From Candidatus Gastranaerophilales bacterium (GTDB lineage: Bacteria; Cyanobacteriota; Vampirovibrionia; Gastranaerophilales; CALOAD01), in NCBI GenBank assembly GCA_942491415.1, contig CALOAD010000008.1:29896-93895 (forward strand): a stretch of 64,000 bases of DNA, in the 5' to 3' direction. A model generated the notes under the pieces. The model saw only the letters and a program-made list of their open reading frames with translations, did not search any database and was not told where the DNA came from. Positions 6,569 to 55,522 of the stretch are shown piece after piece. The translations under genes were made by a program, and so were the position numbers. Each line of letters starts with the position of its first letter. Positions within the stretch are counted from its first letter, which is position 1.

Positions 6569-6645
<77 letters not shown>

Positions 6646-6665
6646 TTAAAACCCACACAACCCCT

Positions 6666-6741
6666 GGGGGGTTAGCTCAGTTGGTAGAGCACCTGCTTTG
6701 CACGCAGGGGGTCAGGAGTTCGACTCTCCTATCCTCCACCA
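6666..6741 (+). tRNA. tRNA-Ala (anticodon TGC), CCA encoded
   Basis: Hand fold: acceptor GGGGGGT/ATCCTCC including the G3:U70 Ala identity pair, anticodon loop TTTGCAC, T-arm AGGAGTTCGACTCTCCT, A + CCA. Confidence 0.9.
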
Positions 6742-6742
6742 T

Positions 6743-6790
6743 AAAACTCCGAAATCTGCTTATGGTAAAGATTTCGGAGTTTTATTTTAT
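6743..6790 (+). terminator. Intrinsic terminator after the tRNA-Ile/tRNA-Ala pair
   Basis: 14-bp stem aaaactccgaaatc ... gatttcggagtttt followed by a T-rich tail. Confidence 0.75.
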
Positions 6791-6867
6791 AGCAAATACC
6801 TTTCCATTGCGCTTTTGAGGCTTCATGTGTTTTGATTGATTCTAGCAAGCTATTTTCCAAGGCATTA

Positions 6868-6914
6868 TTTATACACTTTTATGCATTTCTATACACTGCC
6901 CAAAAAACAAAAGG
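6868..6914 (+). repeat. Island direct repeat, copy R1 (matches the left half of R2)
   Basis: tttatacacttttatgcatttctatacactgcccaaaaaacaaaagg versus 8345-8390 tttatacatttttagccatttctataccttacccaaatataaaggg. About 37/47 identical by hand alignment. Confidence 0.7.
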
Positions 6915-6946
6915 CGCCTACTTGCTAAATAAAAAATAATTAAAAC

Positions 6947-8041
6947 TTATTCAAATAATTGTTTGTACTGTGGTGATAACTTATATTTTCTTGCTTTTTT
7001 AGAAAAATCTACCGCTTCTAAAAAACCTTCTTGATGCCATTTAAATGTAAGCTGTCTAGCACTTCTTGTTGAAAAATTAAAGAATAAAGCAACATCATTA
7101 CTTGTTATAATTTCTTGCTGATTGAATAAAGATAATATTTTTCTTTGCTTTGGATCAAGTTGCCTTAATAATGGTGATTGATCTATTTCGTTTTTGCTTA
7201 AAGCCACAAGAGAATGTTTTTCTACTTTGTCAAAAGCTTCTAGCATACCAATTATGAAATAGTTAACCCATTTAGTAATATCGGCTTCCGCTCTGCCCAT
7301 ATAATAATTATGAGAAGGTCCTATTGTAATAGCATCATAATAGGCAGAAAGATTTCTGGCATAATATTCTTCAAGCGAATATAAGCCTTTTAAATCATAT
7401 CCACCTGTATGTAAAACCAAAGTAGTTAAAAGCCTGGCAGTTCTTCCATTGCCATCATAATATGGATGTATTGTGGCAAATTGATAATGAGCAATAGCTG
7501 CAATTATAGGGCAAGGTATTTCCTCTTTATTTTGGTTAATCCAGCTAATTAAGTCTTTCATCAAAGGTGGAACGTCTTTAGCCTCTGGAGGCATATAAAC
7601 AATACGTCCTGTTAAACTGTCTTTTATTACATTTTGTCCATCCCTATATGGATTGGGTCTAATATTAGTAGAACCATTTGCACAAACAAGCGCATGAATT
7701 TTTTGTATTTGCTTTTCAACTAAAGGGTTATTCTTGATTGCTAATTTTTCAACTTCTGCTATTGCTGCATAATACCCTTTTACTTCACTTTCGTCTCTTT
7801 CTCTTCCGGCAATTTGCTTATTCTCTTTTATAACTTGTTGAACATCTTTTTGTGAAAGCCTATTGCCTTCAATCATTGTTGAATAATGTGTTGAATAAAG
7901 CTTTGCACTTTCTCGCAATCCTGCTAAAACTGAAGGGGTGATAGGCAAATTTTTAATACGCTCTTTTATTTGCTCAATCTTTATTAAAGCATTGGCAATT
8001 TGAGGTGTTATTTGATAGTTGGGTGAAAAATTTAACGGCAT
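6947..8041 (-). CDS. Fic/DOC family protein (class II, N-terminal inhibitory helix) with C-terminal winged-helix-like region
   Basis: 364 aa. Fic active-site motif HPYYDGNGRTARLL. Upstream S-x-x-x-E-G inhibitory motif in YSTMIEGN. Confidence 0.9.
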   Translation of the reverse strand: MPLNFSPNYQITPQIANALIKIEQIKERIKNLPITPSVLAGLRESAKLYSTHYSTMIEGNRLSQKDVQQVIKENKQIAGRERDESEVKGYYAAIAEVEKLAIKNNPLVEKQIQKIHALVCANGSTNIRPNPYRDGQNVIKDSLTGRIVYMPPEAKDVPPLMKDLISWINQNKEEIPCPIIAAIAHYQFATIHPYYDGNGRTARLLTTLVLHTGGYDLKGLYSLEEYYARNLSAYYDAITIGPSHNYYMGRAEADITKWVNYFIIGMLEAFDKVEKHSLVALSKNEIDQSPLLRQLDPKQRKILSLFNQQEIITSNDVALFFNFSTRSARQLTFKWHQEGFLEAVDFSKKARKYKLSPQYKQLFE

Positions 8042-8344
8042 AATATAAACTACTTTACTGTCATAAACCTGCCATTATTATGCCATTAAATTGCCGATAA
8101 ATCAACTACTACTTATTAGATTCTTTGTACGAAAAAGAGTTGATTTCTTCTGGATTGCAAGCGATACTTGACTTACGAATGCTAAAATGGGGAATCTCTT
8201 TGAGAAAGTTATTAGTTCGAGTGTTTCTACTACCACCATAAAAGACACATTTATTATGAATGTGTCTTTTATTATGTGAAACTCGCGCTGTGTGTGGGCT
8301 TTTCAAGACAGCCAATATCAAGCAATCTTTTTTTATTCCACGAA

Positions 8345-8423
8345 TTTATACATTTTTAGCCATTTCTATACCTTACCCAAATATAAAGGGTCAGATAGTT
8401 TAATAAAAACGTTCACTTAGTAT
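8345..8423 (+). repeat. Island direct repeat, copy R2 (full length)
   Basis: The left half matches R1. The right half ataaagggtcagatagtttaataaaaacgttcacttagtat matches R3 at 37/41. Confidence 0.7.
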
Positions 8424-8552
8424 AATAAAAAGGTAATCGAAAATTTTGGATTTTCGGAAATGTAAAAATCAACTCGGAAGATTTCCAAAACTAGATGATA
8501 ATTTTTTCGGTCCAGGGTTGTATATGTGAACTTTAAAATTCATGTTGAAATA

Positions 8553-10907
8553 TTACTTTTTTCTTAAACAGCATTTTTTATATTTTTTGCCACTTCCGCA
8601 AGGACATATATCATTGCGTCCTATTTTTTTCTTTGTATTTAATTTTTTCTGAAATCGTCTAGACTTAAGTAGCTCTACTTGAGAGTTGTATTTTTCTAAA
8701 TTTTCTTTATTTAGTTTCATTGTATATTTAACGATTTTAGAGTCATAAATTTTATTATTTTTATCAAAAGATAAAATTAGAGAAAGTCGCTCTTCCCTTT
8801 GTTGAATTATCATTGAAGGATATATAACATCATCCATTTCTTGTTGTGTCAAAAACGGTATGCCGTCTTGCTTGCAAAACATAGACATCCCAAATACTTC
8901 AAGATGCTTAGAGTGTCTTGAAATAAATTGTTCATTTAAAACTTGTTCAATTAAACTAATTATATGATTACGACCTGCTCCTGAAAAATCAAGTAATCTA
9001 CATATAGCTTCAGAAGACCACTTGTCTTGCTTTTCATTAACTATAGATAAAATATCTTTTAAAACAGGAGGCATCTCTTGTGCTGGTTTTATTGCCTCAT
9101 CTGGATAATGATTTAATGATAAATAATACTCATCAATCTTGTCTATATATGTGCCAAAAAAAGCTTTATCAAATTTATGTTCTTTTAAAAGCTCTTCAAT
9201 ATGCTGAACATATTTATTATGAGCAAAGTACATTCCTAAGTGATCTAATTCATCATTCAAATCAACAATATCAGATTGAGTTGCCAACATACGTTCTTTC
9301 AAAAAATGAGTAAATGTAATATCATTTTGAAATAAATCAGAGTAAACTCTTAATTCATCAATAGATAAAGACCAGGCTGGCTTATCTGGTATATTGAAGT
9401 CAACTTTTTTTAATAATGCGATATTATTTGCAAAAGTATTGAAGTTTTCTAATGAAATACTACATATAAAAATATTATCTATTTCATTATTTTTTAGTTT
9501 GAGTTTTACATTGCTATCTAAATCCTCTCTTTCATATAAAGAAATCTCAGAATTTTCATCTAAGATAGAGATAATTTTATCAGCTTGCTCAACTGGTGAT
9601 TCAAGTAATCTTTGAATAGAATCTTTATAAGAATTAAAATCTGAAAGAGGTGATTTTGTTTTAAATTTTCCTGCTTTTATTTCAAGAATAATTACATTTC
9701 CATCATAAATAATAATTCCATCATTTTCAGACCATTCATTTTTATACCTATAAAAATTTGAATCATAAAAAGATGCATTTGGTAAAATATTTTCAAATAA
9801 TTTAAAAGTAATAGATTGACATATTTTGCCTTGCTTCTTATTCCAGCTATCTCTATATGATGGTTTTTCTTGTAAAATAATATCTTCAAGATTTCTATAT
9901 ATATTATCAAACAAGTGTGATGTTTCAAAACAATAATATTTATTTTTATATTTCAAAAAAGGTTTAATCTTAATAGGAAGTTTTTTAAATGGTTGTCCTG
10001 AAAATTTGCCACTAAAAAATGTTTTATCTTTATTTGGCTCTAGTGAAAGAGCATCTAAAAGTTTTTCAGGTAATTCACATATTTTTTTTAAGTCGAAAAA
10101 ATCACAAGATTGTATTTTTGTTCCTGGTTCGTCAATATCGAAATCCAAATGTTTCTGTAATTCTTGTCTAACTTTTTCAATGTTTTCTATATCTTCAAGC
10201 TCATTTGCTATCTCATTAAATTTGTCATGAGTTTGCTTCAATAATTTCCATTGATTTAAATATCCTTGCTCTACAGAGTATTTAAGTTTTTTAAGCTCGT
10301 CAATTAATTTATCAAGTTCTATATCATAAAGCTCTTTGATAATATTTTTATGAGGTTGTAAAATTTCTTTTAAATGAATGAATTCAAAGTAAGCGTGTCT
10401 TTTACCACATACATTAATCCATTCCATTATAGTCATTGTTTTAAACTCATCAAAATTAAAATTATAGTCTGTTCGCTTTTTATTATGTTGAGATTGCGCA
10501 ATGGAATAAAATAGTGTTGAATTCATATAGATGGATTTAATCAGTTCAAATAGTTTTTTATATTCATTTTCATCTACAACAGTTTTTAAATTTACCTCTA
10601 ACTCAGAAGAAACTATTACACTTTGAACATAATCAATCATTCGTCTTGACATGTTTTCTTCCATAGACCACTCTGATTCAGAAATTTTTCCCACAGCAGA
10701 ACAAGCAAAATGTTCATATCCATATTTAAGTAAAGCTAATGGTTCATAACTTCTAATTATATACCTAGCTTCTATTACAGATTGCTGAAGCTGTTCTTCT
10801 ACAGTTTTTATATTAAATTGAGGTGAATACGCCATAAACCTACTCCACTCCAATGCTTCTGCCGTACCAAACAACTTTGCCGATGACCTTAATATCTTGG
10901 CTTTCAT
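8553..10907 (-). CDS. SEC-C motif protein with a possible PD-(D/E)xK nuclease core
   Basis: 784 aa. C-terminal [16 protein letters not shown] is a SEC-C metal-binding motif. The internal segment [22 protein letters not shown] has the D...E-x-K spacing of restriction-endonuclease-like folds. Confidence 0.75.
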
Positions 10908-11371
10908 CTGTTAGGTCGATAATATATGAATCATAGTTTTTGTTATCGCTGATTTTTTGCAGATTTATATTCATTTACTCCACTTGTAAGCCTTGTGCAT
11001 GCCTATTATAACGAAAAGATAATTCAAAATATATAATATACAAATAGTTATTACAAAATTATTTCATCTGCTTTATTAAGCTCCTCATTTGTATCTAACT
11101 CGATAATATTACCTTACACGCAGAAAAAAGGTCTAAATATGTTGTTTTGTGTTTTGCATCGATGAAGAGCAAACAAATATCGTTTGAAAGCCGTTCTAAA
11201 GCGTTTGAAATCACTCTAATAATCTTTTATGAGTTTAGACGTTGTAAATTGCTAAAAAACTCGTTCAACAGCTTCCTGCGATTTGAGTTGAGAAGTAAAA
11301 CCGTTCTCAAACTTCCATCATTTTCTGCAACCCCAAGCTATAATGCTAAAGCAGTGTAGAACAGGTGGCAT

Positions 11372-11710
11372 ATGAACAATCAAATTCTAAATGTGAATGA
11401 CAAATGGCTAGAGCTGAAAAAAGTTGCAGAATTAAAGAATGTAACCCCCAGAGGAATTCGCTTAGCAATTCAAAAAGGTAAATATATTTCACAAAGAGAC
11501 GTTGGTAATAGTTATAAAATATTACTTTCTAGTCTTGAACCTGATGTTCAGAACAAATATTTGAATGAATATTACATTAATATCGTAAGCTCTGAAACAT
11601 CACAATCACTTGCCATTATAGAAAATAAAAGACAAATTCCCCCTGTAAATACCCTGTTATTTAAAAATAAAAAGAGAATAGCACTACCAAAACTACAAGC
11701 ACCACCATAA
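11372..11710 (+). CDS. Small HTH DNA-binding protein, possibly an N-terminal fragment of a transposase/excisionase-like protein
   Basis: 112 aa. KWLELKKVAELKNVTPRGIRLAIQKGKY resembles the N-terminal HTH of Mu-type transposases and excisionases. Followed by a terminator. Confidence 0.4.
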   Translation: MNNQILNVNDKWLELKKVAELKNVTPRGIRLAIQKGKYISQRDVGNSYKILLSSLEPDVQNKYLNEYYINIVSSETSQSLAIIENKRQIPPVNTLLFKNKKRIALPKLQAPP

Positions 11711-11745
11711 AGCCGTCATCATTGCGATAGACGGCTTTCTTGTTT
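11710..11745 (+). terminator. Intrinsic terminator
   Basis: agccgtc ... gacggct hairpin followed by ttcttgttt. Confidence 0.6.
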
Positions 11746-11770
11746 GAAAAAGACCACTGTATGGGTGATT

Positions 11771-11811
11771 ATAAAGGGTCAGATGGTTTCATAAAAACGC
11801 TCACATAGTAT
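11771..11811 (+). repeat. Island direct repeat, copy R3 (matches the right half of R2)
   Basis: ataaagggtcagatggtttcataaaaacgctcacatagtat, 37/41 identical to 8383-8423. Confidence 0.7.
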
Positions 11812-11814
11812 TGA

Positions 11815-11968
11815 AAAAATAATTAGGTTATTTGAATTTCATAATAGTCCACACCCGTATCACAGAAAACATATTTTATGGATGTCGGGCATGTTTTTTT
11901 ATGTAGAATGCTAGTGCTTTAATGTCCTTGCCGTCTGACAGGCTGAGAATGTGATACTCTTTAGGCAT
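11815..11968 (-). pseudogene. Decayed 5' remnant of a PAPS-reductase-family gene (same family as P1-P4 at 48.9-58.5 kb)
   Basis: The minus strand from the ATG at 11968 reads MPKEYHILSLSDGKDIKALAFYIKK, then after a 2-nt loss MPDIH, then after about 8 nt lost YVFCDTGVD. Compare P2: KEYHILSLSGGKDSTALAFYIKENMPDIHEKIEYVFCDTGVD. Nucleotide similarity is visible across about 150 bp and is truncated at repeat R3. Confidence 0.75.
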
Positions 11969-13193
11969 TTGTAATCTCCCTGACTAAAGCCAATTGCTGA
12001 GGCTTTGAAAGCTTTTTAACAGCCTTATAAACACTATTTAAAACCTTGTCAAAATCGATTGAGTTCTTGCCTGTAAGATTTTCTAATCCTTGCGTTTTAA
12101 TAGCAATTTCTTTAATTTTCTGCTTAAAATCAGCAAGGTCATTATCGCACCAATCTTTTGGCACTCGCTTTTTATTCACTACGGTTGCAACTCTTTCTAA
12201 CCAACGATTATAAGGCAGGTCATCGATTAAGATATTATTAGCAAAAATCTTTAATTCATCATTTGAAATATATTCAAAGATATTTTTAAACTTAGTTTCT
12301 AATGCCTCTTTATCCGCTACTTTAATGCTTAGCGACTCAAACAAAAAGCTTTCAATCTCTTGTATAAGCGAGTTATAGCAAGAGTCCATTTCATCAAATG
12401 ATTGTTTTAATTCATCAATACTAAATCTTTTTAAATCTCTAAAAATAAGGGCGTGTGGTTCTTTGGCATTCATTATAATATTTCGCACTCGTTCTGTGGT
12501 TTTGGTTAGGATTGTGGTTTGTTTGGTAAATTTTTCCAATTCTCTAACTTTGACTACAATCCCTTTGACCAAGTGAAGTAGATTTGAAGTGTTTTCTTTT
12601 AAAAGAGTTTCTGATAAAAGCTCAATATACTTTCGCTTTTCACCATCAAAAATATTCTTTTGAAGCTCAAAGTTTTGAGGATTAGCCATTAGTCTATCAA
12701 ATAAAAGCGGAGTAATTTCTAGTGAAAAAGCATTTTTCTCATAAAGTGAAACTTTATCACCTTGCTTCAATAAAACATCAAGCAATAAAAGCGAAATAAT
12801 TGTTTTTGTCAGGCCGTATGGTTCACTTGATAGTTTTGTATAAAGCTCTTGGATATTCGATTTTACTTCAGCCCTGTGGATAAATATCTCAATTTCATCT
12901 CTAATGCATTTAATTTTAACATCTTTTCTAAAAAGCTCTTGAACCATTGCAAGCTCAACACTATTAGCTTTTAAATCTTTATCTTCAATTAAGTGTTTAA
13001 TTACTTCTCTAATAGCCTTAGTACCTGTTGCAGGTGGTTTATTCTGAGTTAAATATTCATTTTTAAAACTTGGGCATCTATCATATTTTTTGTCGAAATA
13101 ATTAGAAATCTCAGGTTGAGATAAATCCTCATCGCCTTCATATATTCTCGTAAAACCTGTTTCAATTAAATGTCGTTTTGCTAGTAGTGTCAT
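11961..13193 (-). CDS. Hypothetical protein (helical, 410 aa) directly upstream of the PAPS-reductase remnant
   Basis: Long ORF. Its stop at 11961-11963 lies 2 nt before the remnant ATG (11968). No motif I can name with confidence. Confidence 0.65.
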   Translation of the reverse strand: MTLLAKRHLIETGFTRIYEGDEDLSQPEISNYFDKKYDRCPSFKNEYLTQNKPPATGTKAIREVIKHLIEDKDLKANSVELAMVQELFRKDVKIKCIRDEIEIFIHRAEVKSNIQELYTKLSSEPYGLTKTIISLLLLDVLLKQGDKVSLYEKNAFSLEITPLLFDRLMANPQNFELQKNIFDGEKRKYIELLSETLLKENTSNLLHLVKGIVVKVRELEKFTKQTTILTKTTERVRNIIMNAKEPHALIFRDLKRFSIDELKQSFDEMDSCYNSLIQEIESFLFESLSIKVADKEALETKFKNIFEYISNDELKIFANNILIDDLPYNRWLERVATVVNKKRVPKDWCDNDLADFKQKIKEIAIKTQGLENLTGKNSIDFDKVLNSVYKAVKKLSKPQQLALVREITNA

Positions 13194-13251
13194 TAAAATT
13201 CCTTTCTTACATTTAGATAGTAGATGTAAGATAAAATTAATGACTATAAAT

Positions 13252-13503
13252 TTATTTATTTAAATCGCACCACTTTTTTTCTTCATTCCATTTCCAATTG
13301 TATTTTAGACAATTTTCTTTGGTTATTTTTACTTTTCCGTATTCAGTATTTACTTCTAACCCTTCAATACACTTGCCTGTATCCAAACAGTAATCTTTAT
13401 CATCAAAGAGTATAGTTGATCCAATAAAAATCAATATAATGGGAACTAAAATAATAATAAGTGATATAACAAATTTTTTCATAGTATTAATTTTATCATA
13501 CAA
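13252..13503 (-). CDS. Small membrane-anchored Cys-containing protein (candidate immunity/partner of the upstream gene)
   Basis: 83 aa with TM segment FVISLIIILVPIILIFIGSTILF followed by a 4-Cys ectodomain. Starts 9 nt after the MuF/SAA gene. Confidence 0.55.
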   Translation of the reverse strand: MYDKINTMKKFVISLIIILVPIILIFIGSTILFDDKDYCLDTGKCIEGLEVNTEYGKVKITKENCLKYNWKWNEEKKWCDLNK

Positions 13504-13512
13504 ATCAAATTA

Positions 13513-14169
13513 CTAATACTTATCAGGCAAGCCTTTAGGTCTTTCGCCTGGGTACATATCTCCGCAATCACCATCAGGATTGTCTTGTCCACATTCTCTA
13601 CCGGCTTTGTTTGCTTCCATATCTTCTTTAGCGTCTTCGATTTGCTCTATAAGGTCATAACCTTTAAATATTACATTATTTGCGCCTTCAATTAGCTCTC
13701 TGGCTAAACTGAGTGCTTCTGCAATTTTTTCCTGATCTCTTTGTGCTGCTTCGCAATTAGCCTTAAAGTGAAAATATTTATCAGCCCCAATAGTATTTGC
13801 TTCTTTCATGTCTTGATAATTTGAAGCAAAATCCCCTAGGGCATTATCCCAAGTTGCTATTTCTGAAATTATCCCGTTTACAGCACCTGAAAAAAATTCT
13901 CCCGCAGAAGATTGAAGTTCACTGACTAAATCACTTAACTCAGATTGAGCACTTTGAGTATCGCCTACAGCTTCATCAATTGCACTATAATCAGGCTCAT
14001 ACTCACAAGGTTGAGCATAAACTTCTTTTACTGCACAATCACAATTAGGATGAGGTCTATCAGGAGCATCTTCAGGATTCTTAAATTGAGTTCCGTTTAA
14101 TGCCTGACAAGCATCGCAAGAATCTCCACCTGCTTCCCATTCATAATGATCAATTATTTGTTCTTCCAT
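13513..14169 (-). CDS. Phage MuF C-terminal motif + serum amyloid A-like domain protein
   Basis: 218 aa. N-terminus: WEAGGDSCDACQALNGTQF...PHPNCDC (MuF/SPP1 gp7-type C-x2-C...HPNC-x-C). C-terminus: DMKEANTIGADKYFHFKANCEAAQR...ARELIEG...EANKAGR...PKGLPDKY aligns with vertebrate SAA [25 protein letters not shown]...ARENIQR...AANEWGR...PAGLPEKY, including the terminal GLP-x-KY. Confidence 0.8.
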   Translation of the reverse strand: MEEQIIDHYEWEAGGDSCDACQALNGTQFKNPEDAPDRPHPNCDCAVKEVYAQPCEYEPDYSAIDEAVGDTQSAQSELSDLVSELQSSAGEFFSGAVNGIISEIATWDNALGDFASNYQDMKEANTIGADKYFHFKANCEAAQRDQEKIAEALSLARELIEGANNVIFKGYDLIEQIEDAKEDMEANKAGRECGQDNPDGDCGDMYPGERPKGLPDKY

Positions 14170-14172
14170 TTT

Positions 14173-14718
14173 TTAGCTCCATTTCATTTTTAAATTATCT
14201 AAAACTTTATTTACTTTTCTTTCCGTATTAATCCTACGGTTATCTTTTGTGTCAAAAATTATATTATTTACTGCTCCACGCTTAATATATTTTTTAATAA
14301 CTCCTAGAGTGTAATGCTTTGATAGTTCAATTAATCGTGCTTTGGTTTTGTCTCCAAAGTCACCATCATATTTTACTTTCCAGCCTTTATTTGCAGCAGA
14401 AATAGCTTTCCCTTTATTTAAAAGATTAATACCCCTTTGAACATCCTTTATTGCTTGTTCTTTTCCAACATCTGCAATATGCTCTTCAATAAAGTTTAAA
14501 ATTTCTTGTGCTCTAGGACATGTCGCTAACTTGTGTTCTACTTCTTGTTTTGATGTTTCGACTTTTTGATTTTGCTGAACTTGTTTTTGACTTAATTCAT
14601 TGGAAAATGGTATTCCGCTACTACGCATTTGCTCCATAATTTCATTTTCTTTTGAAGAGAATTCATCTGATGTCATTTGGTCAATGAATTCTCGAGTGTA
14701 AATTCGTTTGTTTTTCAT
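14173..14718 (-). CDS. Hypothetical protein with peptidoglycan-binding-like motif
   Basis: 181 aa. VQRGINLL...YDGDFGDKTKARL resembles the PG_binding_1 signature (DG-x-FG-x-x-T). Confidence 0.5.
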   Translation of the reverse strand: MKNKRIYTREFIDQMTSDEFSSKENEIMEQMRSSGIPFSNELSQKQVQQNQKVETSKQEVEHKLATCPRAQEILNFIEEHIADVGKEQAIKDVQRGINLLNKGKAISAANKGWKVKYDGDFGDKTKARLIELSKHYTLGVIKKYIKRGAVNNIIFDTKDNRRINTERKVNKVLDNLKMKWS

Positions 14719-15158
14719 TTAATATTCCTTTCTATTTTATATTTTTTGCCATCAAATTTAATTAACCCCAATTCAAAAAATGGATTTTCAGGAGCATATT
14801 CTGAGTACATTTTTAGAAAGGCTTTAACGTCACGACTTATAGCTCTATCTGAAGCATCCTTAAATGTTTCTTTACAAGCTTCTATAAGCTTTTCCAATGA
14901 AAAAGAACTTTTCATTTTTGAAAAAGTAAACATCCACACCGGTAGTTCTAAAATCTGTTTATGCAGATTTTCAATACTTTTCAGGTCTTCCAAGTAGGGG
15001 TCTTCTTTTAAAATGCTTAAATCAAAAACGCTTTTCCAAAATTTTAAGCTATTGATTTTTGTTTTTCCAAGACCTGAATAATCTTCTTCTAGCATCCTTT
15101 TGAAATCTCTAAGGCAAGGATAATGCCCTTGGCTTCTGCCAATGGTGTTAATAGTCAT
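14715..15158 (-). CDS. Hypothetical protein (first gene of the island operon)
   Basis: 147 aa with a 4-nt overlap with the next gene. Preceded by two perfect palindromic sites. Confidence 0.55.
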   Translation of the reverse strand: MTINTIGRSQGHYPCLRDFKRMLEEDYSGLGKTKINSLKFWKSVFDLSILKEDPYLEDLKSIENLHKQILELPVWMFTFSKMKSSFSLEKLIEACKETFKDASDRAISRDVKAFLKMYSEYAPENPFFELGLIKFDGKKYKIERNIK

Positions 15159-15204
15159 TTGATTTTCTCCGTAAGTTCTAGTATAAAAATGTGGTAATAA
15201 TATA

Positions 15205-15220
15205 GTAAACTTCTGTTTAC
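15205..15220. promoter_or_regulatory. Candidate operator GTAAAC-ttct-GTTTAC
   Basis: Perfect 6+4+6 palindrome about 50 bp upstream of the start at 15158. Confidence 0.55.
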
Positions 15221-15250
15221 TTTTTTAGAATATCACATGACTTTATTTTT

Positions 15251-15266
15251 GTAAACCCTTGTTTAC
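15251..15266. promoter_or_regulatory. Candidate operator GTAAAC-cctt-GTTTAC
   Basis: Second perfect palindrome, 46 bp centre-to-centre from the first. Confidence 0.55.
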
Positions 15267-15369
15267 TTATTCGGTCTTTATGCTAAAATTAAATTAATGA
15301 GTATCTAAACTCATCGCCAGAGCAAACTCTAGAAATTGGGGTAAGGTCAAAGCTATAATTTAAATTTTT

Positions 15370-47019: not shown

Positions 47020-47156
47020 AAATTATCCTTGAAATATACAAATTGAATATTTATATCAACAATTTAGCACATTGAATCTATTTAATTCCACAAAAATTAT
47101 GATTTAAAAAGCCTTAGTTAATTTTTAAATCACAACCTTTTTGATAATATAATTGT

Positions 47157-48917
47157 ATGAAAACTTTAAAATTCGGCTTTACCATAATTATTTTACTCTT
47201 TTTACTTTGGCTTTGTATTGACCATTTCTGGGGTTACAAGGTTTTAAAAGTTATAGATGGCGATACTCTCTATGTCGATCTAAATCGTAATAATAGGGCT
47301 GAAACGGAAGAAAAAATCAGAATAAAGTCTATAGATACTTTTGAAACAAAATATTCTTATCAATTATCAAAGCAATCAAGAAATTTTGGTATAACTAAAA
47401 AACAAGCTTTAGGGCTTGGTTATTTAGGCAAGGAATTTGCAAAGAAAAAGCTTTTGAATAAAAGAGTCAAATTGCAAATAGAAGGCAAAGGGGATTTTAA
47501 CAGAAAACTTGCTCATATTTATATTAACGGTAAAAACTATGAAAAATTAATCTTAAAAGAAGGCTTAGCTACTGTTTATAAACGTGCTGATGACGCAGAA
47601 AAATACCTGCAATATGAGAATACAGATAAAATAAAGCAAAATGCCCAAAAAGTCCAAAATTTAGACCTTGTGATATTGAATCTAAAAAACAACAAATATC
47701 ATAAACCCTACTGCAAATACGCCCGAAATATCAGCAGATTTGAGCTGGTAGAGAAGAAAAACCTGTCTCAAAATGCTAAAGAAGCAGGGTGTTGTGAAAA
47801 ATTAAAAGATTATAAGTCAAGTAAATTTGATGAAAAAATTTTTTTAAAAGATTTGGAAAAGAATAAAGCAGAAATGTTTTTTGTAAATCCAGTAAATGTT
47901 AAATATTCAGAAAATAGTTGTTTAAATTCGGTTTGTGGTTCATTATTAACCTTGATAAAAAGTGCTCATAAAAGTATTGATATAGCAGCCTATGGTTATT
48001 ACGGGCAAGATGATATTATAAACGCTTTAAGAGCTGCTAAACAACGAGGTGTAAAAATAAGAGGTGTTGTAGATGATACAACATACAAATTTTATCTTGA
48101 TACAAAAAAAGTACAATCTGAATTTGGATTTAAACAAGATTTTTTCACGCCAATTGGTTCAGGTAAAAAATTTAAATCAAAATTTACTCGGGAAACATCA
48201 GCATTAATGCATAATAAATTTGCAATTATAGATAATAAATATCTTTGGACAGGGTCAACTAATATTACAGATAGTGGAATGACAAAAAATGCCAATAATT
48301 CCATAGTTTTTTATTCTTCAGATATTTCTAATATTTACTTGCAAGAATTTAATCAAATGTACACAAATAATAAGTTTCATTCATTGAAAGATAAAATTTT
48401 AAATGCAAAAAATATAAAACTTAAAAAAGATTTCGATATATCGATTTATTTTTCTCCCAAGGATAAAGCTTTAAGGAATGCTGTAATACCTTTAATAAAT
48501 GAATCTACAGAAACTATAGAAATAATGATTTTTTATTTAACCAACAAAAAAGTGGTAAAAGCATTAGAAGACGCCCACTTTCGAGGTGTTAAAGTCAGAA
48601 TTATAATGGATTTTGAACCAACTGCGGAAATATATAGCCCAATAGATAGACTTAGAAAATTAGGTGTTTTAGTAAAAGCTGAGAATTGGGCAGGTAAAAT
48701 GCATATGAAAACAGCTATATTTGATAGAAAAAAAGTTGTGCTTGGTAGTACAAATTGGACTAGTACAGCAGAATATGTTAATGATGAAAATCTTTTAGTA
48801 ATAAAAAATCCAGTTATCACAACCAAAGTTTATAATGAATTTGAAAGGCTCTGGAATTCCATACCTGATAAATATTTAAAAATAAAAGCTTCAAAAAAAT
48901 ATTTTAAGAAAAAATAG
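47157..48917 (+). CDS. N1: membrane-anchored/exported staphylococcal-nuclease + double-HKD (PLD/Nuc-like) fusion, lacks the Cys-rich tail
   Basis: 586 aa. Anchor MKTLKFGFTIIILLFLLWLC. SNase motifs VIDGDT, IRIKSIDTFE, NRKLAHIY. YHKPYC...AGCC motif. HKD1 MHNKFAIIDNKYLWTGSTN. HKD2 MHMKTAIFDRKKVVLGSTN. Confidence 0.88.
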   Translation: MKTLKFGFTIIILLFLLWLCIDHFWGYKVLKVIDGDTLYVDLNRNNRAETEEKIRIKSIDTFETKYSYQLSKQSRNFGITKKQALGLGYLGKEFAKKKLLNKRVKLQIEGKGDFNRKLAHIYINGKNYEKLILKEGLATVYKRADDAEKYLQYENTDKIKQNAQKVQNLDLVILNLKNNKYHKPYCKYARNISRFELVEKKNLSQNAKEAGCCEKLKDYKSSKFDEKIFLKDLEKNKAEMFFVNPVNVKYSENSCLNSVCGSLLTLIKSAHKSIDIAAYGYYGQDDIINALRAAKQRGVKIRGVVDDTTYKFYLDTKKVQSEFGFKQDFFTPIGSGKKFKSKFTRETSALMHNKFAIIDNKYLWTGSTNITDSGMTKNANNSIVFYSSDISNIYLQEFNQMYTNNKFHSLKDKILNAKNIKLKKDFDISIYFSPKDKALRNAVIPLINESTETIEIMIFYLTNKKVVKALEDAHFRGVKVRIIMDFEPTAEIYSPIDRLRKLGVLVKAENWAGKMHMKTAIFDRKKVVLGSTNWTSTAEYVNDENLLVIKNPVITTKVYNEFERLWNSIPDKYLKIKASKKYFKKK

Positions 48918-49701
48918 TTATTAAACTTGAGGATAAATCAGTGTTTTCAAGCTTTTTTGTCATAGAATACTTTTCTTTTATTTTTTTTCTATTTTCTGGC
49001 TCTATAAGTTTTTTTAACGATAAATCTTTAATCCAATAAAAATAACCTTTTTTAATTTTGTCGTTATTGTAATATTCATAATTCATAGCTTTTTGAAATA
49101 ATTTTGGGTGGTTTTCATATAATCCGATCCATTCTATTTTTTTCTGATAAAAACAAAAATAACAACCGGAACGACTTCTCCAGTTGTAATAATCGGGGAA
49201 GCCTATTCCAGCTTTAGTTAATATATTTTCAATGTCTTTTTTTATGAGCCCTTTTTCCACAAAAGGAAAAGAAGCTTTTATATGCTCGCCGACACTTTTA
49301 TCGTTAGTAGCTCTATGGGATTCATCTGCTCTAATTCCTATATATAAATTTACGAGCTGTTTTTTTGAATTCTTTAGTTTGTCGAAAATATATTTATTAA
49401 AGGTTTTTGTTTTTAATTCAAAAGTACACCAACGATTATATTGAGTTGGTAAATATCCATTGCAATTAATCAAATGTTCAAAACTCTTTTCAGGCTTTAT
49501 TCGAGTGATTTTTTTATTTAAATAAACTTCTATTTTATTCAAATAATCATAAGTTTCAGGCAAATCACAACCGGTATCGCAAAAAACATACTCAATTTTT
49601 TCGTGGATTTCGGGCATATTTTCTTTTATATAAAACGCCAGTGCTGTAGAGTCCTTACCACCCGATAGACTTAGTATATGATATTCCTTTTCTTGTTCCA
49701 T
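48904..49701 (-). CDS. P1: PAPS-reductase-family PP-loop ATP pyrophosphatase
   Basis: 265 aa with SLSGGKDS, RWCTFELK, GIRADESHR and GCYFCF. Overlaps the N1 3' end by 14 nt. Confidence 0.88.
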   Translation of the reverse strand: MEQEKEYHILSLSGGKDSTALAFYIKENMPEIHEKIEYVFCDTGCDLPETYDYLNKIEVYLNKKITRIKPEKSFEHLINCNGYLPTQYNRWCTFELKTKTFNKYIFDKLKNSKKQLVNLYIGIRADESHRATNDKSVGEHIKASFPFVEKGLIKKDIENILTKAGIGFPDYYNWRSRSGCYFCFYQKKIEWIGLYENHPKLFQKAMNYEYYNNDKIKKGYFYWIKDLSLKKLIEPENRKKIKEKYSMTKKLENTDLSSSLITIFS

Positions 49702-50600
49702 GTAAAACTAACACTCCCAACGACTTTGTAAATATAAACAACTGTTTACTTTTATCAGGATAGCATATTTTTTTGTTTTGTAAACCCCTATATTCAGAAT
49801 CAGGTCTTTTTTTGAGGTTAATAAATCTTTAGCGGCAGGAATTTTAATATAAGAATTTATTAAAAGAACGTATTGCTTTTTACCGTCTTCTTTTTCATAG
49901 ACCCTAATTTTTGCAGATAAATCACAACCTTTTTGATAATATAATTGTATGAAAACTTTAAAATTCGGCTTTACCATAATTATTTTACTCTTTTTACTTT
50001 GGCTTTGTGTTGATCATTTCAAGGGTTATAAAGTTTTAAAGGTAATAGACGGTGATACTGTTTATATTGACCTAAATCGAAATAATAAGGGTGAAACGGA
50101 AGAAAAAATCAGAATAAAGTCTATTGATACTTTTGAAACAAAGTATTCTTACCAATTATCAAAGCAATCAAGAAATTTTGGTATAACTAAAAACAAGCTT
50201 TAGGGCTTGGTTATTTAGGCAAGGAATTTGCAAAGAAAAAGCTTTTGAATAAAAGGGTTAAGGTTGTTTTTGACGCCAACAGGTCAAAAGGTGACTATGG
50301 CAGAAAGCTGGCTCATATTTATATTAACGGTAAAAACTATGAAAAACTAATATTAAAAGAAGGATTGGCTGTTGTTTATAAACGTGCTGATGATGCAAAA
50401 GAATATTTAAAGTATGAAAACATAGAAAAAATAAAGCAAAATGCCCAAAAAGCCCGAGACTTAGACCTTGTAATACTGAATCTAAAAAACAATAAATACC
50501 ATAAACCTTATTGCAAATACGCCCATAATATTAGTAAGTTTGAACTGATTGAGAAAAAAGATTTGCCTAGGGATGCTAAACAAGCAGGATGTTGTAAGGA
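49500..50600. repeat. Conserved block B (P1 5' end + 247-bp spacer + N2 5' part); approximate edges
   Basis: Near-identical by eye to 52390-53500 and 55320-56415. Partial copies at 47127-47800 and 58300-58585. Confidence 0.8.
49734..49749. promoter_or_regulatory. Candidate operator aTAAAC-aact-GTTTAc upstream of P1
   Basis: 15/16 palindrome about 40 bp upstream of the P1 ATG. GTAAAC half-site at 49780-49785, with site starts 46 bp apart. Confidence 0.5.
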
Positions 50601-51822
50601 TTTGAAAGAGCCAATTATTTCTATAAAAGCAAACTATAGAATAAATAATCCGCCTAAAGAATTAAAATATTCAAAAAAGAATGAAATTGATACCAGCATA
50701 AAGTTGTTATTTAATAGTCCTTTAGTTTATAACGAATCGCCATCAGAAAAAAGCAAAACTCCTGTTGGAAAAACAATAATTGAAGAATTAAATAAGTTAA
50801 ATCATCAAGATATTTATATTGCAACTTATGGTTTTGCTTATCAACCTGAAATTGTAAATTCCTTTAAATATGCAGAAATTAGGGGTTATTCTCTTTTTGG
50901 TGTCGCTGATGTTGATATTCATAACAGAAGTATTTATCGAGATACTCATTATGTTATGCAACAAATAGGCAAATGGCAGACTGATCATAAGGCCAATTTA
51001 GAGCAACAAAAATATAGACCTAAATATAATGGAAGTATAATGCATAATAAATTTATAACCTTCGGCAAAAATAAAGTCTTAACAGGTTCTACAAATTTTA
51101 GCTCATCAGGAACAGGTGGTTTAAATGCTAATTTATCAATTTTGATAACTTCTCCCGTAATAACCAAAGCTTTTATCCAAGAAGCAAAGCAAATGTATGA
51201 GAAAAAATTATTTCACGAATTTAAAACACCTTACTATATAAAAAACGTAGAATTAGATGATAAAAGCATTGTTTCAGTTTATTTTTGCCCAAATCCTTTA
51301 GTTATTAATGAATTAGTTAAAAATATAGACAATGCAAAAAAATATGTTTATGTAGCAATGTTTTTTTTGACTCATAATAAAATCATTAATGCCCTTGAAA
51401 TTGCTAATAATAGAGGAGTAGATGTTAAGGTGATAACTGATGCTTCAGCAGCTCAAGAAATTTTTTCAAAACATCACAAAATAAGAGCTAAAAATATTCC
51501 TGTAAAAGTCGAAAATTGGACAGGTAAAATGCATATGAAAACTATTATTATTGATGATGAACTTTTTACGGTTGGTTCAATGAATGCTACAAAAACTGCA
51601 GAAACTAAGAATGATGAAAATATTGTTATCGTTAAAAACCCAAAATTAGCAAAAGAATTAAAAAATATTTTTAATCAATTATATATTTCTATTGACGATA
51701 AATGGTTAAAAGAAACACCATTAGCAGAGTCTTTTCAGTCCGGCAATTCTTGCAACGATGGTATTGATAATGACCACAATTGGAAATATGATAATCAAGA
51801 TAATAGTTGCAAAGTGCATTAA
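49949..51822 (+). pseudogene. N2: SNase-PLD paralog interrupted by a -1 frameshift in a poly-A run
   Basis: Track ORFs 49949..50203 and 50245..51822 together match N3 end to end. N2 has ctaaaaacaagc (A5, 50189-50193) where N1, N3 and N4 have A6. HKD1 also reads HNKFITFG (Asp replaced by Gly). Confidence 0.8.
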
Positions 51823-52589
51823 TAAAAGTCTAAAAGATTTGGTATGAAATTTTGAGTCTTAGGATTTTTTTTATTATTAGCTTTTATTTTTTCTATATTT
51901 TCAGGTAAAATAAGCTCTCTTAAAAGCATATCCATATTCCAACCAATTTTATTTTTGCCATCATCAATTTCATAAGACATAGCCTTTTCGAACAATTCAG
52001 GATTATTTTCTTTTAATCTTAACCAACTCATTTTAGTTTGATAAAAACAAAAATAACATCCGTTTCTATTGCTCCATTTATAATACTCAGGGAAATTAAT
52101 ACCATTATCAATTAATATTTTTTCAATATCAGGCTTGTTTAATCCAGCTTCTATAAAAGGATACAGTTGATTAACAAAATCTTCTCCCCCGTCAGGCTTT
52201 GATCGATGAGCCTCATCAGATCTAATTCCTATATATAAATTTAACTTTTTACAATTTTGATGAAAACGTTCTTTTTTAAATTTACTAAAAGGCTTTAATT
52301 TTAGCTCAATAGTACACCATCTTCTATGAGGAGCAGGTAGACACTTATAAATACTATATAAATGTTCAAAGCTTTTCTCAGGCTGAATATAAGTAATTTT
52401 TTTATTTAGGTAAACTTCAATTTTATTCAAATAGTCATAAGTTTCAGGTAGGTCCACCCCCGTATCGCAAAAAACATATTCGATTTTTTCGTGGATGTCG
52501 GGCATATTTTCTTTTATATAAAACGCTAATGCTGTAGAGTCCTTACCTCCCGATAGACTTAGTATATGATATTCCTTTTCTTGTTCCAT
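51819..52589 (-). CDS. P2: PAPS-reductase-family PP-loop enzyme
   Basis: 256 aa with the same motifs as P1. Its stop overlaps the N2 stop in TTAA (51819-51822). Confidence 0.88.
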   Translation of the reverse strand: MEQEKEYHILSLSGGKDSTALAFYIKENMPDIHEKIEYVFCDTGVDLPETYDYLNKIEVYLNKKITYIQPEKSFEHLYSIYKCLPAPHRRWCTIELKLKPFSKFKKERFHQNCKKLNLYIGIRSDEAHRSKPDGGEDFVNQLYPFIEAGLNKPDIEKILIDNGINFPEYYKWSNRNGCYFCFYQTKMSWLRLKENNPELFEKAMSYEIDDGKNKIGWNMDMLLRELILPENIEKIKANNKKNPKTQNFIPNLLDFY

Positions 52590-53500
52590 GTAAAACCAAC
52601 TCTCCCAACGACTTTGTGAATATAAACAACTGTTTACTTTTATCAGGATAGCATATTTTTTTGTTTTGTAAACCCCTATATTCAGAATCAGGTCTTTTTT
52701 GAGGTTAATAAATCTTTAGCGGCAGGAATTTTAATATAAGAATTTATTAAAAGAACGTATTGCTTTTTACCGTCTTCTTTTTCATAGACCCTAATTTTTG
52801 CAGATAAATCACAACCTTTTTGATAATATAATTGTATGAAAACTTTAAAATTCGGCTTTACCATAATTATTTTACTCTTTTTACTTTGGCTTTGTGTTGA
52901 TCATTTCAAGGGTTATAAAGTTTTAAAGGTAATAGACGGTGATACTATCTATGTCGATTTAAATCGTAATAATAAGGCTGAAACGGAAGAAAAAATCAGA
53001 ATAAAGTCTATTGATACTTTTGAAACAAAGTATTCTTACCAATTATCAAAGCAATCAAGAAATTTTGGTATAACTAAAAAACAAGCTTTAGGGCTTGGTT
53101 ATTTAGGCAAGGAATTTGCAAAGAAAAAGCTTTTGAATAAAAGGGTTAAGGTTGTTTTTGACGCCAACAGGTCAAAAGGTGACTATGGCAGAAAGCTGGC
53201 TCATATTTATATTAACGGTAAAAACTATGAAAAACTAATATTAAAAGAAGGATTGGCTGTTGTTTATAAACGTGCTGATGATGCAAAAGAATATTTAAAG
53301 TATGAAAACATAGAAAAAATAAAGCAAAATGCCCAAAAAGCCCGAGACTTAGACCTTGTAATACTGAATCTAAAAAACAATAAATACCATAAACCTTATT
53401 GCAAATACGCCCATAATATTAGTAAGTTTGAACTGATTGAGAAGAAGAATCTGCCTCAAAATGCCAAACAAGCCGGGTGTTGCAAGGGATTAAAAGATTT
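52390..53500. repeat. Conserved block C (P2 5' end + 246-bp spacer + N3 5' part); approximate edges
   Basis: See block B. Confidence 0.8.
52622..52637. promoter_or_regulatory. Candidate operator aTAAAC-aact-GTTTAc upstream of P2
   Basis: Same site as at 49734. GTAAAC half-site at 52668-52673. Confidence 0.5.
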
Positions 53501-54749
53501 TAAAAAGAATACTTTTAATTATAAAGATAATTCATTAGAAGTTTATTTTTTTGATCCTAATATTAACTATTTTAATCAGGCAAACGAGGGAAAATATGCT
53601 CTCATTAAAGCTATTAATGATTCAAAGAATAAATTGTATTTTGCAATTTATGGAATTTCAAACTATGACATTATGAATGCTCTTATAGCTAAATATGAGA
53701 ATGGTATTGATGTTCAATGGGTTACTGATATAAATAAATATGGAAAGAATAATTACTCTAAGACACATTTATTGCAGAAAAAAATCCATAATTTTAATAT
53801 TGATAAAATTGCTGAACAATTTAAAGCCAACCGAAATCAAAAATTTGAATATTATATTGACGGAAAGAAGTACACAAGAGAGTTTACTGATAGTCAAATT
53901 AAATATTTTACAGATCAATTAATGCATAATAAATTTTTCATTTTTGACAATGATTTAATTTCAACAGGCTCAGTTAATATGAGCGTATCGGGAATTGAAG
54001 GACAAAATGCAAATGATTTATTGATAATTAATTCACCTAAAATTAATCAAATTTACACTCAAGAATTTCAGCAGATGAAATCAGGTTTATTTCATAAACA
54101 AAAGAAAAAGATTAAGAACAAAAAACACTTAAAACTTGATAATGGCTTTAATATTTCTGTGTATTTTGCTCCTTATGATAATGATTTTATGCTTGATGTT
54201 ATTCAAATAATCAATGAAGCAAAAGATTTTATTTATATACCAATGTTTTTCTTTACGGATAAAAAAATCCCCCAAACTCTTATAAATGCTAAAGAAAGAG
54301 GCGTTGATGTTAGGGTTATACTTGATGCTACTTCAGCAGCAAGAAAATACTCAAAACACGAAATTTTAAGGGAAGCAGGAATAAAAGTTAAGGTTGAAAA
54401 CTGGGCAGGTAAAATGCATATGAAAGCATTAATTACAGAATGTTACGTGGTTACAGGCAGTTTAAACTGGACGAATAGAGCTCAGTTTTTTAACGACGAA
54501 AATTCTTTGATAATTAAAAATAAAAAATTATCTAGCATTTATAAAGAATTTTTCTTAAGTCTTTATGAGTCAATTCCCAATAAATGGTTAACTTTAAATC
54601 CAAGAGCTGAAAGCTGGGATAGTAAAGGCTCTTGTAAAGATGGTATTGATAATGACCACGATGGATATACAGATTTAAAAGATTTTGATTGTAGCAAAAA
54701 ATCCCCTCAGGGTGTTGATTTTGAAGATTATTATCATAAACAAAATTAA
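52836..54749 (+). CDS. N3: exported SNase + double-HKD fusion with Cys-rich DGIDNDHDG tail
   Basis: 637 aa. N-terminal 200 aa nearly identical to N2. HKD1 MHNKFFIFDNDLISTGSVN. HKD2 MHMKALITECYVVTGSLN (Asp position is Glu). Tail GSCKDGIDNDHDGYTDLKDFDC. Confidence 0.88.
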   Translation: MKTLKFGFTIIILLFLLWLCVDHFKGYKVLKVIDGDTIYVDLNRNNKAETEEKIRIKSIDTFETKYSYQLSKQSRNFGITKKQALGLGYLGKEFAKKKLLNKRVKVVFDANRSKGDYGRKLAHIYINGKNYEKLILKEGLAVVYKRADDAKEYLKYENIEKIKQNAQKARDLDLVILNLKNNKYHKPYCKYAHNISKFELIEKKNLPQNAKQAGCCKGLKDFKKNTFNYKDNSLEVYFFDPNINYFNQANEGKYALIKAINDSKNKLYFAIYGISNYDIMNALIAKYENGIDVQWVTDINKYGKNNYSKTHLLQKKIHNFNIDKIAEQFKANRNQKFEYYIDGKKYTREFTDSQIKYFTDQLMHNKFFIFDNDLISTGSVNMSVSGIEGQNANDLLIINSPKINQIYTQEFQQMKSGLFHKQKKKIKNKKHLKLDNGFNISVYFAPYDNDFMLDVIQIINEAKDFIYIPMFFFTDKKIPQTLINAKERGVDVRVILDATSAARKYSKHEILREAGIKVKVENWAGKMHMKALITECYVVTGSLNWTNRAQFFNDENSLIIKNKKLSSIYKEFFLSLYESIPNKWLTLNPRAESWDSKGSCKDGIDNDHDGYTDLKDFDCSKKSPQGVDFEDYYHKQN

Positions 54750-55522
54750 GCTAGTAATTCATTTAAATTCTGTTGAGCAGCTTTCTTTTTTGCTCTTTGT
54801 TCTTCAAGTTTTTTATACTTTTCTTTATAAAATTTGATATTTTGAGGTTTGCATAAATCTTTTAATCTTATTTCTTGTAGCCATCCAAGTTCTTTTTTTT
54901 CAAAATTCATTGCTTTTTTATAAAGATTCGGGTGATTTTCATAGAGCTTTATCCAATCAAGCGGATTTTGAAAAAAGCAAAAATAACAACTGGAACGTTC
55001 TTTCCATTTATAATAATCAGGCAATAATATTCCTGAATTCATTAAAATATTAACAATATCATTTTTATTTAATCCATTTTCTACAAACGGATAAATCCTA
55101 AAAAGATTTTCAGGATCATCGTAAATCCGCTTTGCACGTTGAGGTTCATCCGCTCTAAATCCAATATAATTATAAACTTTGGAATTATTTTCCAGCTTAG
55201 ATTTTATGTATTTTAAAAAAGGTAAAGTCTTTAATTCACTTGTGCACCAACGATTAGCTATGGATGGTAAAAATCCATTTGAAGATTCAACTAAATGTTC
55301 AAAACTTTTCTCTGGATGTATTCTTGTTATTTTTTTATCTAGAAAAATTTCTATCTTATTCAAATAATCATAAGTTTCAGGCAAATCTACACCGGTATCG
55401 CAAAAAACATATTCGATTTTTTCGTGGATGTCGGGCATATTTTCTTTTATATAAAACGCTAATGCTGTAGAGTCCTTACCTCCCGATAGACTTAGTATAT
55501 GATATTCCTTTTCTTGTTCCAT
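54746..55522 (-). CDS. P3: PAPS-reductase-family PP-loop enzyme
   Basis: 258 aa with SLSGGKDS, RWCTSELK, GFRADEPQR and SCYFCF. TTAA stop overlap with N3 (54746-54749). Confidence 0.88.
   Translation of the reverse strand: MEQEKEYHILSLSGGKDSTALAFYIKENMPDIHEKIEYVFCDTGVDLPETYDYLNKIEIFLDKKITRIHPEKSFEHLVESSNGFLPSIANRWCTSELKTLPFLKYIKSKLENNSKVYNYIGFRADEPQRAKRIYDDPENLFRIYPFVENGLNKNDIVNILMNSGILLPDYYKWKERSSCYFCFFQNPLDWIKLYENHPNLYKKAMNFEKKELGWLQEIRLKDLCKPQNIKFYKEKYKKLEEQRAKKKAAQQNLNELLA

Follow-up and report, generated by a model that had tools for sequence, protein, structure and literature searches.

A palindromic promoter element common to dispersed Ssp-like genes in a Gastranaerophilales genome

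We analysed a 64,000-nucleotide stretch of a Candidatus Gastranaerophilales genome (contig CALOAD010000008.1, positions 29,896 to 93,895; hereafter the window, with positions counted from its first letter), in which two separate loci carry genes related to Ssp-type DNA phosphorothioation. One is an island operon with sspB- and sspC-like genes, and the other is an array of four sspD paralogues (P1 to P4), each facing a nuclease gene (N). The palindrome GTAAAC-N4-GTTTAC is a genuine, non-random cis-element, present in the promoter of the island operon and in that of each P gene. Below we describe the element, the descent of the promoters that hold it and the genes that they head, and weigh whether the palindromes act as operators.

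Results

The palindromes and the promoters around them lie as follows.

15205 to 15220, minus strand: proximal perfect palindrome of the island, candidate operator O1 (minus-strand reading GTAAAC-AGAA-GTTTAC, plus-strand reading GTAAAC-TTCT-GTTTAC)
15251 to 15266, minus strand: distal perfect palindrome of the island, candidate operator O2 (minus-strand reading GTAAAC-AAGG-GTTTAC, plus-strand reading GTAAAC-CCTT-GTTTAC)
15227 to 15255, minus strand: predicted sigma-70-type promoter of the island operon (TTTACA at 15255-15250, 17 nt, TGa-TATTCT, with the -10 at 15232-15227; consensus scan)
15197 to 15280, minus strand: promoter module of the island, about 80 bp, homologous to the P-gene promoters at 69-73% identity
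49734 to 49785, minus strand: P1 promoter core (palindrome 49734-49749, -10 TATCCT, -35 TTTACA within the GTAAAC half-site 49780-49785; coordinates carried over from P2 via the 2888-bp offset)
52622 to 52673, minus strand: P2 promoter core (palindrome 52622-52637; TTTACA 52672-52667, 16 nt, TGc-TATCCT 52650-52645)
55555 to 55606, minus strand: P3 promoter core, same sequence as P2
58533 to 58584, minus strand: P4 promoter core (palindrome 58533-58548; promoter 58583-58556; TTTACA-16-TATCCT with TG)

Both island palindromes are upstream of the minus-strand ATG at 15158. The P-gene form, ATAAACAACTGTTTAC (ATAAAC-AACT-GTTTAC), has one mismatch to GTAAAC-N4-GTTTAC and is found at 49734, 52622, 55555 and 58533; GTAAAC hexamers at 49780, 52668, 55601 and 58579 stand exactly 46 bp from these palindromes, the same offset that separates the two island palindromes. 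A first-pass annotation of this DNA had all of the palindrome coordinates right, as well as the equal 46-bp offset at the island and the four P loci. Its placing of the P palindromes upstream of their start codons also holds, with the distance from the near edge to the ATG corrected from about 40 to 33 bp, and the island and P regions are collinear on the minus strand as it proposed, the gap between the conserved blocks being 22 nt in both kinds of site instead of 21 or 22. These blocks, the 12-mers GGGTTTACAAAA and AAAAGTAAACAG, are perfect at five of five loci.

With at most one mismatch allowed, the motif has six matches in the window against 0.22 ± 0.46 expected by shuffling, and none of 100 shuffled sequences reached six; the possibility raised in the first-pass annotation, that the motif might be as dense in random AT-rich sequence, thus fails here. 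All six lie at ssp promoters. Allowing two mismatches gives nine matches, compared with 3.3 expected, and the three further ones (37398, 39045 and 60169) are all within listed open reading frames (ORFs). Perfect 6-N4-6 palindromes of any sequence number 39 in this DNA of 31% G+C, or about one per 1.6 kb; a lone one is ordinary here, and a pair with identical arms 46 bp apart, a much rarer occurrence, is remarkable. The O1 dyad extends to 13-nt arms at 85% complementarity, such extension into the flanks being found at the island and P sites alike, and O1 folds as a 7-bp hairpin (-4.9 kcal/mol as DNA, -6.0 as RNA). O2 is intact in the island copy only, and its counterpart at P4 has a degenerate distal arm (GTAAAC-CCTT-TTAGAC).

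On the minus strand all five loci have a common layout: GGG-TTTACA (the -35), 16-17 nt, TGnTATyCT (an extended -10), about 7 nt, and GTAAAC-AGnn-GTTTAy. At the island, P2 and P4 alike, the consensus scan calls a TG-extended promoter-like site in this position, where sigma-70-type hexamers 16-18 nt apart lie upstream of the genes and on their strand. Because these calls fall exactly there, what had been described as a half-site 46 bp upstream is the -35 hexamer, TTTACA, of the predicted promoter. Relative to the predicted start, O1 begins 7 nt past the -10 and would span about +1 to +16, with its centre near +8.5. The centre of O2 would be near -38.5, and its promoter-proximal arm includes the -35 hexamer.

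The island and P modules align over about 80 bp with scores of 49-54 (21 ± 2.7 for shuffled sequences), and in P4 the aligned part includes the CCTT between the arms of the distal dyad. Because the modules are homologous over this length, the motif is very probably shared through common descent of one promoter, and not through the recruitment of separate promoters into a regulon. P1 to P3 show 100% identity over a tract that runs from at least -300 to about +120 (counted from the ATG), with gene bodies 45-75% identical, and P4 enters the identical tract at -82, exactly at GTAAACCC. Since P1 to P3 share this whole tract and P4 shares it from that point, the four P sites are copies whose likeness has been maintained through recent duplication or gene conversion, not independent observations; the six sites amount to about two observations.

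The genes of the island locus, all on the minus strand, are:

14715 to 15158, minus strand: 147-aa ORF, the N-terminal DUF4007/SspB-like part of an sspB/sspC-fusion gene (residues 2-127 of the homologue P0122, 52% identity)
13252 to 14718, minus strand: three ORFs between the halves of the fusion gene (181 aa; 218 aa with a serum-amyloid-A (SAA) domain; 83 aa)
11961 to 13193, minus strand: 410-aa ORF, the SspC-C-terminal-like part of the fusion gene (P0122 residues 135-548, 52% identity)
11838 to 11968, minus strand: frameshifted sspD pseudogene remnant (MPKEYHILSLSDGKD...YVFCDTGVD, the first ~50 sspD codons)

The island operon is one sspB/sspC-fusion gene, interrupted by three ORFs and with a dead sspD downstream, as the 147-aa and 410-aa ORFs tile the 548-aa P0122. 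The 410-aa protein has its closest homologues in single proteins of 537-548 aa, and the sspD remnant overlaps the stop of the 410-aa gene like a canonical sspBC-sspD junction. The 147-aa ORF matches DUF4007 (E 7e-14) and the PADLOC SspB profile (3e-12) at profile positions ~82-200 only; the 410-aa ORF matches SspC profiles at their C-terminal third only (~750-1050 of ~1050). Just past the sspD remnant, a 112-aa ORF (11372-11710, plus strand) is similar to the DNA-binding N-terminus of a Mu-like transposase (phrog_310, E 4e-4); it probably remains from the rearrangement that disrupted the locus.

A 181- or 140-aa protein and an SAA-domain (PF00277) protein adjoin an SspC-C-like gene in two genomes (window 13513-14718; locus L012, 1508-2628), in differing orders; the 181-aa protein of the window and the 140-aa protein of L012 share 42% identity, and the L012 pair is beside a 407-aa homologue. 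Because this pair recurs in L012, a functional link of the three ORFs inside the fusion gene may be more apt than a chance insertion. A Mu-F-like motif is found at the N-terminus of the SAA-like protein.

The P genes of the array, with the N genes given separately in the text, are:

48904 to 49701, minus strand: P1, SspD paralogue of 265 aa
51819 to 52589, minus strand: P2, SspD paralogue of 256 aa (PADLOC SspD E 5e-81)
54746 to 55522, minus strand: P3, SspD paralogue of 258 aa
57646 to 58500, minus strand: P4, SspD paralogue of 284 aa, with its head duplicated internally

All four P genes carry the Pfam domain PAPS_reduct. The N genes encode plus-strand nucleases with an SNase and two PLD domains, each convergent on a P gene with overlapping stops, so that positions 47126-58591 form a four-unit tandem array of convergent nuclease/SspD pairs of about 2.9 kb per unit. 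The heads of the units (the P promoter, the intergenic region, the first ~40 P codons and ~100 N codons) are ~100% identical, and the gene bodies share 45-75% identity in DNA and 45-58% in protein, a pattern of cassettes with homogenised heads and diversified bodies. The first-pass annotation had suggested that the divergent N promoters might be under the same control as the P genes; our scan of the window found no copy of the motif at them, the upstream region of N1 differs, and we drop this part of the proposal.

The SNase-PLD nucleases (47157-48917, 52836-54749, 55769-57649, and 10893-13055 of the related locus L003) carry an N-terminal signal/transmembrane (TM)-like segment, MKTLKFGFTIIILLFLLWLCV, and a C-terminal Cys/Asp-rich motif, CxDGxDNDxDG. 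These features suggest that they are exported or membrane-anchored, which would not be expected of a restriction component working with a phosphorothioation enzyme. N2 (49949-51822) is frameshifted by the loss of one A (A5 compared with A6 in N3) about 240 nt past its ATG, before a stop at 50203, with the sequence around the A-run otherwise identical in N2 and N3; the shift could reflect pseudogene formation, an error in the assembly or a phase-variable tract.

Short remnants in the array hint at the source of the P promoters. The last ~25 nt of the P leaders, GGTTTTAcATGGA, read in one frame as ...SLGELVLHG, and the fusion gene of locus L010 ends in GGTTTTAaATGGA, ...LLREVLNG*, overlapping the sspD ATG. 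The duplicated head of P4, MEQEKEYHILSPSGGKEPQRGDYKPKEYHILSLSGGKD, has a second copy preceded by sequence like the 3' end of the island sspBC, and is a recombination scar; the junction there includes GDYKPKEYHILS, which resembles the island REITNA*/MPKEYHILS. Because such remnants of the sspBC 3' end lie in the P leaders, the P promoters may be former sspBC promoters: the remnants are suggestive of array units that were once promoter-sspBC-sspD and that lost the sspBC frame and kept the promoter. The dead sspD of the island is 74% identical to P2, equal to the divergence of the island and P modules. The two motif-bearing loci are parts of a single Ssp-like system that came apart.

The order fusion gene, SspD and convergent SNase-PLD nuclease is the canonical module in the related loci L010 and L003, and L001 is alike by its ORF list and PADLOC matches. 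In L011, from a Gastranaerophilaceae metagenome-assembled genome (MAG), a 538-aa homologue of the fusion gene has a cysteine desulfurase gene (Aminotran_5) after it. Upstream of this gene are TTTACAA, an A-run, TGtTAT and AAAAAAGTA, a likeness to the island promoter core with z of 3.6-4.9 against shuffles. This core lends the promoter assignment some support, and the similarity ends where the palindrome would begin. No similarity to the island promoter core was found upstream of the fusion genes of L010, L003 and L001.

Our footprinting set comprised SspD homologues at 66-70% identity (L003, L004, L006, L007 and L009) and fusion-gene homologues (L010-L016); the palindrome was present in none of these loci, several of whose contigs end too near the gene. 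A genome scan with the SspD alignment returned two sheep-gut MAG loci only, both without the motif. Scanning for the two-site DNA pattern gave no match in viral contigs and one match in metagenome contigs, in a coding region of an unrelated AT-rich contig and most likely due to chance.

Two SspD paralogues stand in same-orientation tandem ahead of a convergent gene in L007 (115-1748) and in L008, and because of these the multiplication of sspD is not unique to the present genome. The SspB/SspC fusion proteins (455-548 aa; window 11961-15158, L001, L003, L010 and L011) match the last third of SspC profiles only, with no ATPase region detected in them. These fusions are conserved beside SspD and a PLD nuclease in several gut MAGs, and the three together may constitute an undescribed minimal Ssp-like module.

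The window is chromosomal, with pnp, dut, rplS, ylqF, rnhB, gpsA, plsY, der, dnaG and a sigma-70 factor gene, and its closest protein relatives are in Candidatus Gastranaerophilales and Gastranaerophilaceae MAGs. Elsewhere in it, two tRNA genes (6569-6642 and 6666-6738) border a defence-island-like stretch (6569-10907), in which a Fic protein (6947-8041) matches PADLOC SoFic (E 3e-50) and a 784-aa protein (8553-10907) carries a SEC-C motif at its C-terminus.

Discussion

Phosphorothioation-based defence is known from the SspABCD-SspE and SspFGH systems (PMC8092258, PMC9646914), whose domains have been analysed in detail (PMC10853773, PMC12839542). The present genes resemble these systems in encoding an SspD of the PAPS-reductase type, a DUF4007/SspB part and an SspC-like C-terminal part; the SspD and SspB assignments hold, and a cysteine desulfurase adjoins the fusion homologue in L011. 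They differ in that SspB and SspC are fused (~540 aa), with the AAA+ (ORC/Cdc6-type) ATPase of SspC undetected in the 410-aa ORF and the 455-548-aa homologues. The partner nuclease is a convergent protein with an SNase and two PLD domains and a signal/TM-like N-terminus, not SspE or SspFGH, and the window yielded no SspA cysteine desulfurase, SspE or SspFGH. Unlike in those systems, the parts are dispersed in this genome, with sspD and the nuclease as a four-cassette array.

The best explanation of the palindromes, towards which we lean if only narrowly, is that one ancestral Ssp-like promoter is present in five copies and carries operators for a dimeric repressor. The island copy would drive the split sspB/sspC-fusion gene with the dead sspD behind it, and the array copies would drive the four sspD paralogues after deletion of the sspBC frame, the promoter-plus-5' heads of the array units having presumably been homogenised since by recombination. 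The start-site palindrome would be an operator and the island -35 palindrome a second one, at which a dimeric DNA-binding protein would block RNA polymerase, and the dispersed sspBC-like and sspD genes would be held co-repressed until a signal releases the repression. We read the palindromes as operators because two perfect dyads with the same arms sit over -35 and +1, the classic repressor positions; dyads of this size would fit a helix-turn-helix (HTH) dimer, and they overlap the predicted -35/+1 contact region. It is from these features that we infer protein binding and repression, and any identity proposed for the regulator is likewise conjectural. The first-pass annotation had likewise proposed a shared dimeric repressor; the dyad symmetry and the position over -35 and +1 fit that idea, and the sharing of the six sites is better explained by common descent than by recruitment into a regulon.

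Several observations weigh against this explanation. When nearly all ORFs of the window were scanned against Pfam, PADLOC and PHROGs, no HTH or WYL regulator gene emerged; the scans gave only the sigma factor and the transposase N-terminal remnant, the DUF4007 fragment being the other DNA-binding candidate. The transcription start is itself predicted from the promoter sequence, and the island copy heads a partly decayed locus. The centre-to-centre distance of 46 bp corresponds to ~4.4 helical turns, out of phase for cooperative looping, and P1 to P3 no longer have the second palindrome's distal arm. The palindrome was not found in L001, L003, L007, L010, L011, L012 or L014, nor was the motif seen in the 108 kb of related loci. 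Finally, the palindrome arms of the island and the P genes agree at 11 of 12 positions, for which a binomial estimate gives p ~0.1 against the 69-74% background; the match is no better than that background, and conservation between the copies is therefore no independent evidence of selection.

Some of these points can be turned to the view that the palindromes are relics, five copies of one promoter whose arms are merely -35-like TTTAC(A/T) hexamers and A/T-rich initially transcribed sequence with no dedicated binder. Descent would account for the similarity of the sites, each arm does read as a -35-like hexamer, and the consensus scan called a second promoter, TTTACT-18-TATACT, from the proximal island palindrome. 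The predicted orthologous promoter of L011 without a palindrome, the lack of a regulator in the window and the decay around the island copy, with its split gene and dead sspD, would also be expected of a relic. We nevertheless consider it a fairly unlikely account, in view of the two perfect 16-bp dyads that have the same arms and fit into 62 bp, an arrangement hardly to be expected unless selection or some specific mutational process produced it, and of the extension of the dyad into the flanks at the island and P sites.

The proximal palindrome might instead act in the transcript, where a stem-loop at the 5' end would stabilise the mRNA or serve as the target of an RNA-binding regulator. From the predicted start the mRNA would open with a hairpin (-6.0 kcal/mol in the island, -3.1 in the P genes), the single P mismatch (GTTTAT) leaves a G-U pair on the sense strand, and, with no terminator predicted between rnhB and the island operon, a read-through RNA could hold both hairpins. 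The stems are, however, short and A/U-rich, the P hairpin folds no better as single-stranded DNA than shuffles do (z -0.06), the distal palindrome is upstream of the predicted promoter and Rfam gave no match; the copies are near-identical and hence show no covariation. Taken together these make a role in RNA distinctly improbable.

An SOS-type system, in which the sites would be the LexA boxes of this lineage and the Ssp-like genes would be induced by DNA damage, had been put forward as one possibility in the first-pass annotation on the strength of the AAC-N4-GTT geometry, which the sites and the Gram-positive Cheo box do have in common; LexA operators, moreover, typically sit over -35 and +1. 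The Cheo consensus is CGAAC-N4-GTTCG, with a critical outer G/C. TAAAC-N4-GTTTA fits only six of its 10 fixed positions, with A/T in place of the outer G/C, and has an extra outer GT/AC that the Cheo box lacks, so that the likeness is one of core and spacing; nor do the sites fit the cyanobacterial box RGTACNNNDGTWCB. The motif occurs in the window at ssp promoters and at no SOS gene, and it was absent from the related loci. As the first-pass annotation had stated, the window offers no lexA or recA for comparison, and our domain scans found no uvr gene there either. We regard this kind of control as highly improbable.

Other identities were considered and rejected. The half-site TTGTAAACC resembles the arm of the E. 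coli bioO operator; against a BirA operator, the arms are 4 nt apart and not ~15, and none of the genes has to do with biotin. NtcA sites have the form GTA-N8-TAC, and the spacing here is GTA-N10-TAC. For a plus-strand intrinsic terminator there is a T-run after the dyad, but each stem has two G-C pairs, no plus-strand gene ends there and none was called. No known RNA family gave a credible match. A recombinase site or shufflon was discarded because the window has no recombinase gene and a 4-bp spacer is atypical.

Compared with known repressor operators (TetR/tetO, LexA boxes and phage-repressor operators), the likeness lies in short perfect 6-N4-6 dyads (with arms of up to ~13 nt), two per promoter and near -38.5 and +8.5. 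The differences are that four of the five promoters here have one full dyad, that the 46-bp spacing is out of helical phase, that no cognate regulator was found in the window and that the dyads are not conserved in the orthologous promoters of relatives. Control of restriction-modification systems through C-protein boxes is another analogue; the first gene here is a DUF4007 fragment, and no HTH_3-type ORF (a small Xre-type controller) was found in the window. In phosphorothioation systems of the Dnd type, DndB sites are direct repeats and not 6-N4-6 palindromes. PMC8569181, citing work on Salmonella, describes the Dnd operon as negatively regulated by DndB/DptB. The two cases have in common a phosphorothioation cluster, a promoter with repeated sites and a DNA-binding protein as first gene product. 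The present system is Ssp-type and not Dnd-type, with no homologue of DndB (DGQHR). WYL-type repressors bind inverted repeats and control defence islands (PMC9122601); like the BrxR/CapW-type operons, the present loci have inverted repeats in a defence-operon promoter and a presumed logic of keeping a potentially toxic system low, and they differ in that no WYL or HTH regulator gene adjoins either locus in the window. DndB control, WYL-type repressors and C-protein boxes are the closest analogues, and in each case the element fails to belong for lack of the regulator gene.

The DUF4007/SspB domain has been described as a recognition module of one HTH and two winged HTH folds (PMC12839542, PMC10853773). 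As a long shot, we conjecture from these analogies that the 147-aa DUF4007/SspB-like protein, which would be free-standing because the fusion gene is split, is an autoregulator acting in trans on the split sspBC and on the four cassettes of sspD and putatively exported nuclease. Its AlphaFold 2 model was unusable (mean predicted local distance difference test, pLDDT, of 42) and lends autoregulation no support, and a sequence search of the PDB with P0122 gave no match. If the conjecture were true, the recognition subunit of a modification complex would double as a transcriptional controller, like DndB or the C proteins of restriction-modification systems.

A motif common to paralogous, gene-converted promoters is one observation and not six, and it says little about a regulon. 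Functionally, the element looks like any operator-bearing sigma-70-type promoter, and the Ssp-like array is more unusual than the motif. The gene context, with a short SspB/C fusion that seems to be ATPase-less, an SspD beside an SNase-PLD nuclease bearing a putative signal peptide, and four cassettes with identical heads and diverged bodies, may be the more interesting part. If the palindromes are operators, an Ssp-type phosphorothioation module would gain its first cis-regulatory handle, and would do so in a little-studied gut lineage (Gastranaerophilales/Melainabacteria-like); the palindromes would also show that a scattered and multiplied defence system can be co-regulated through an ancestral promoter kept by each of its copies.

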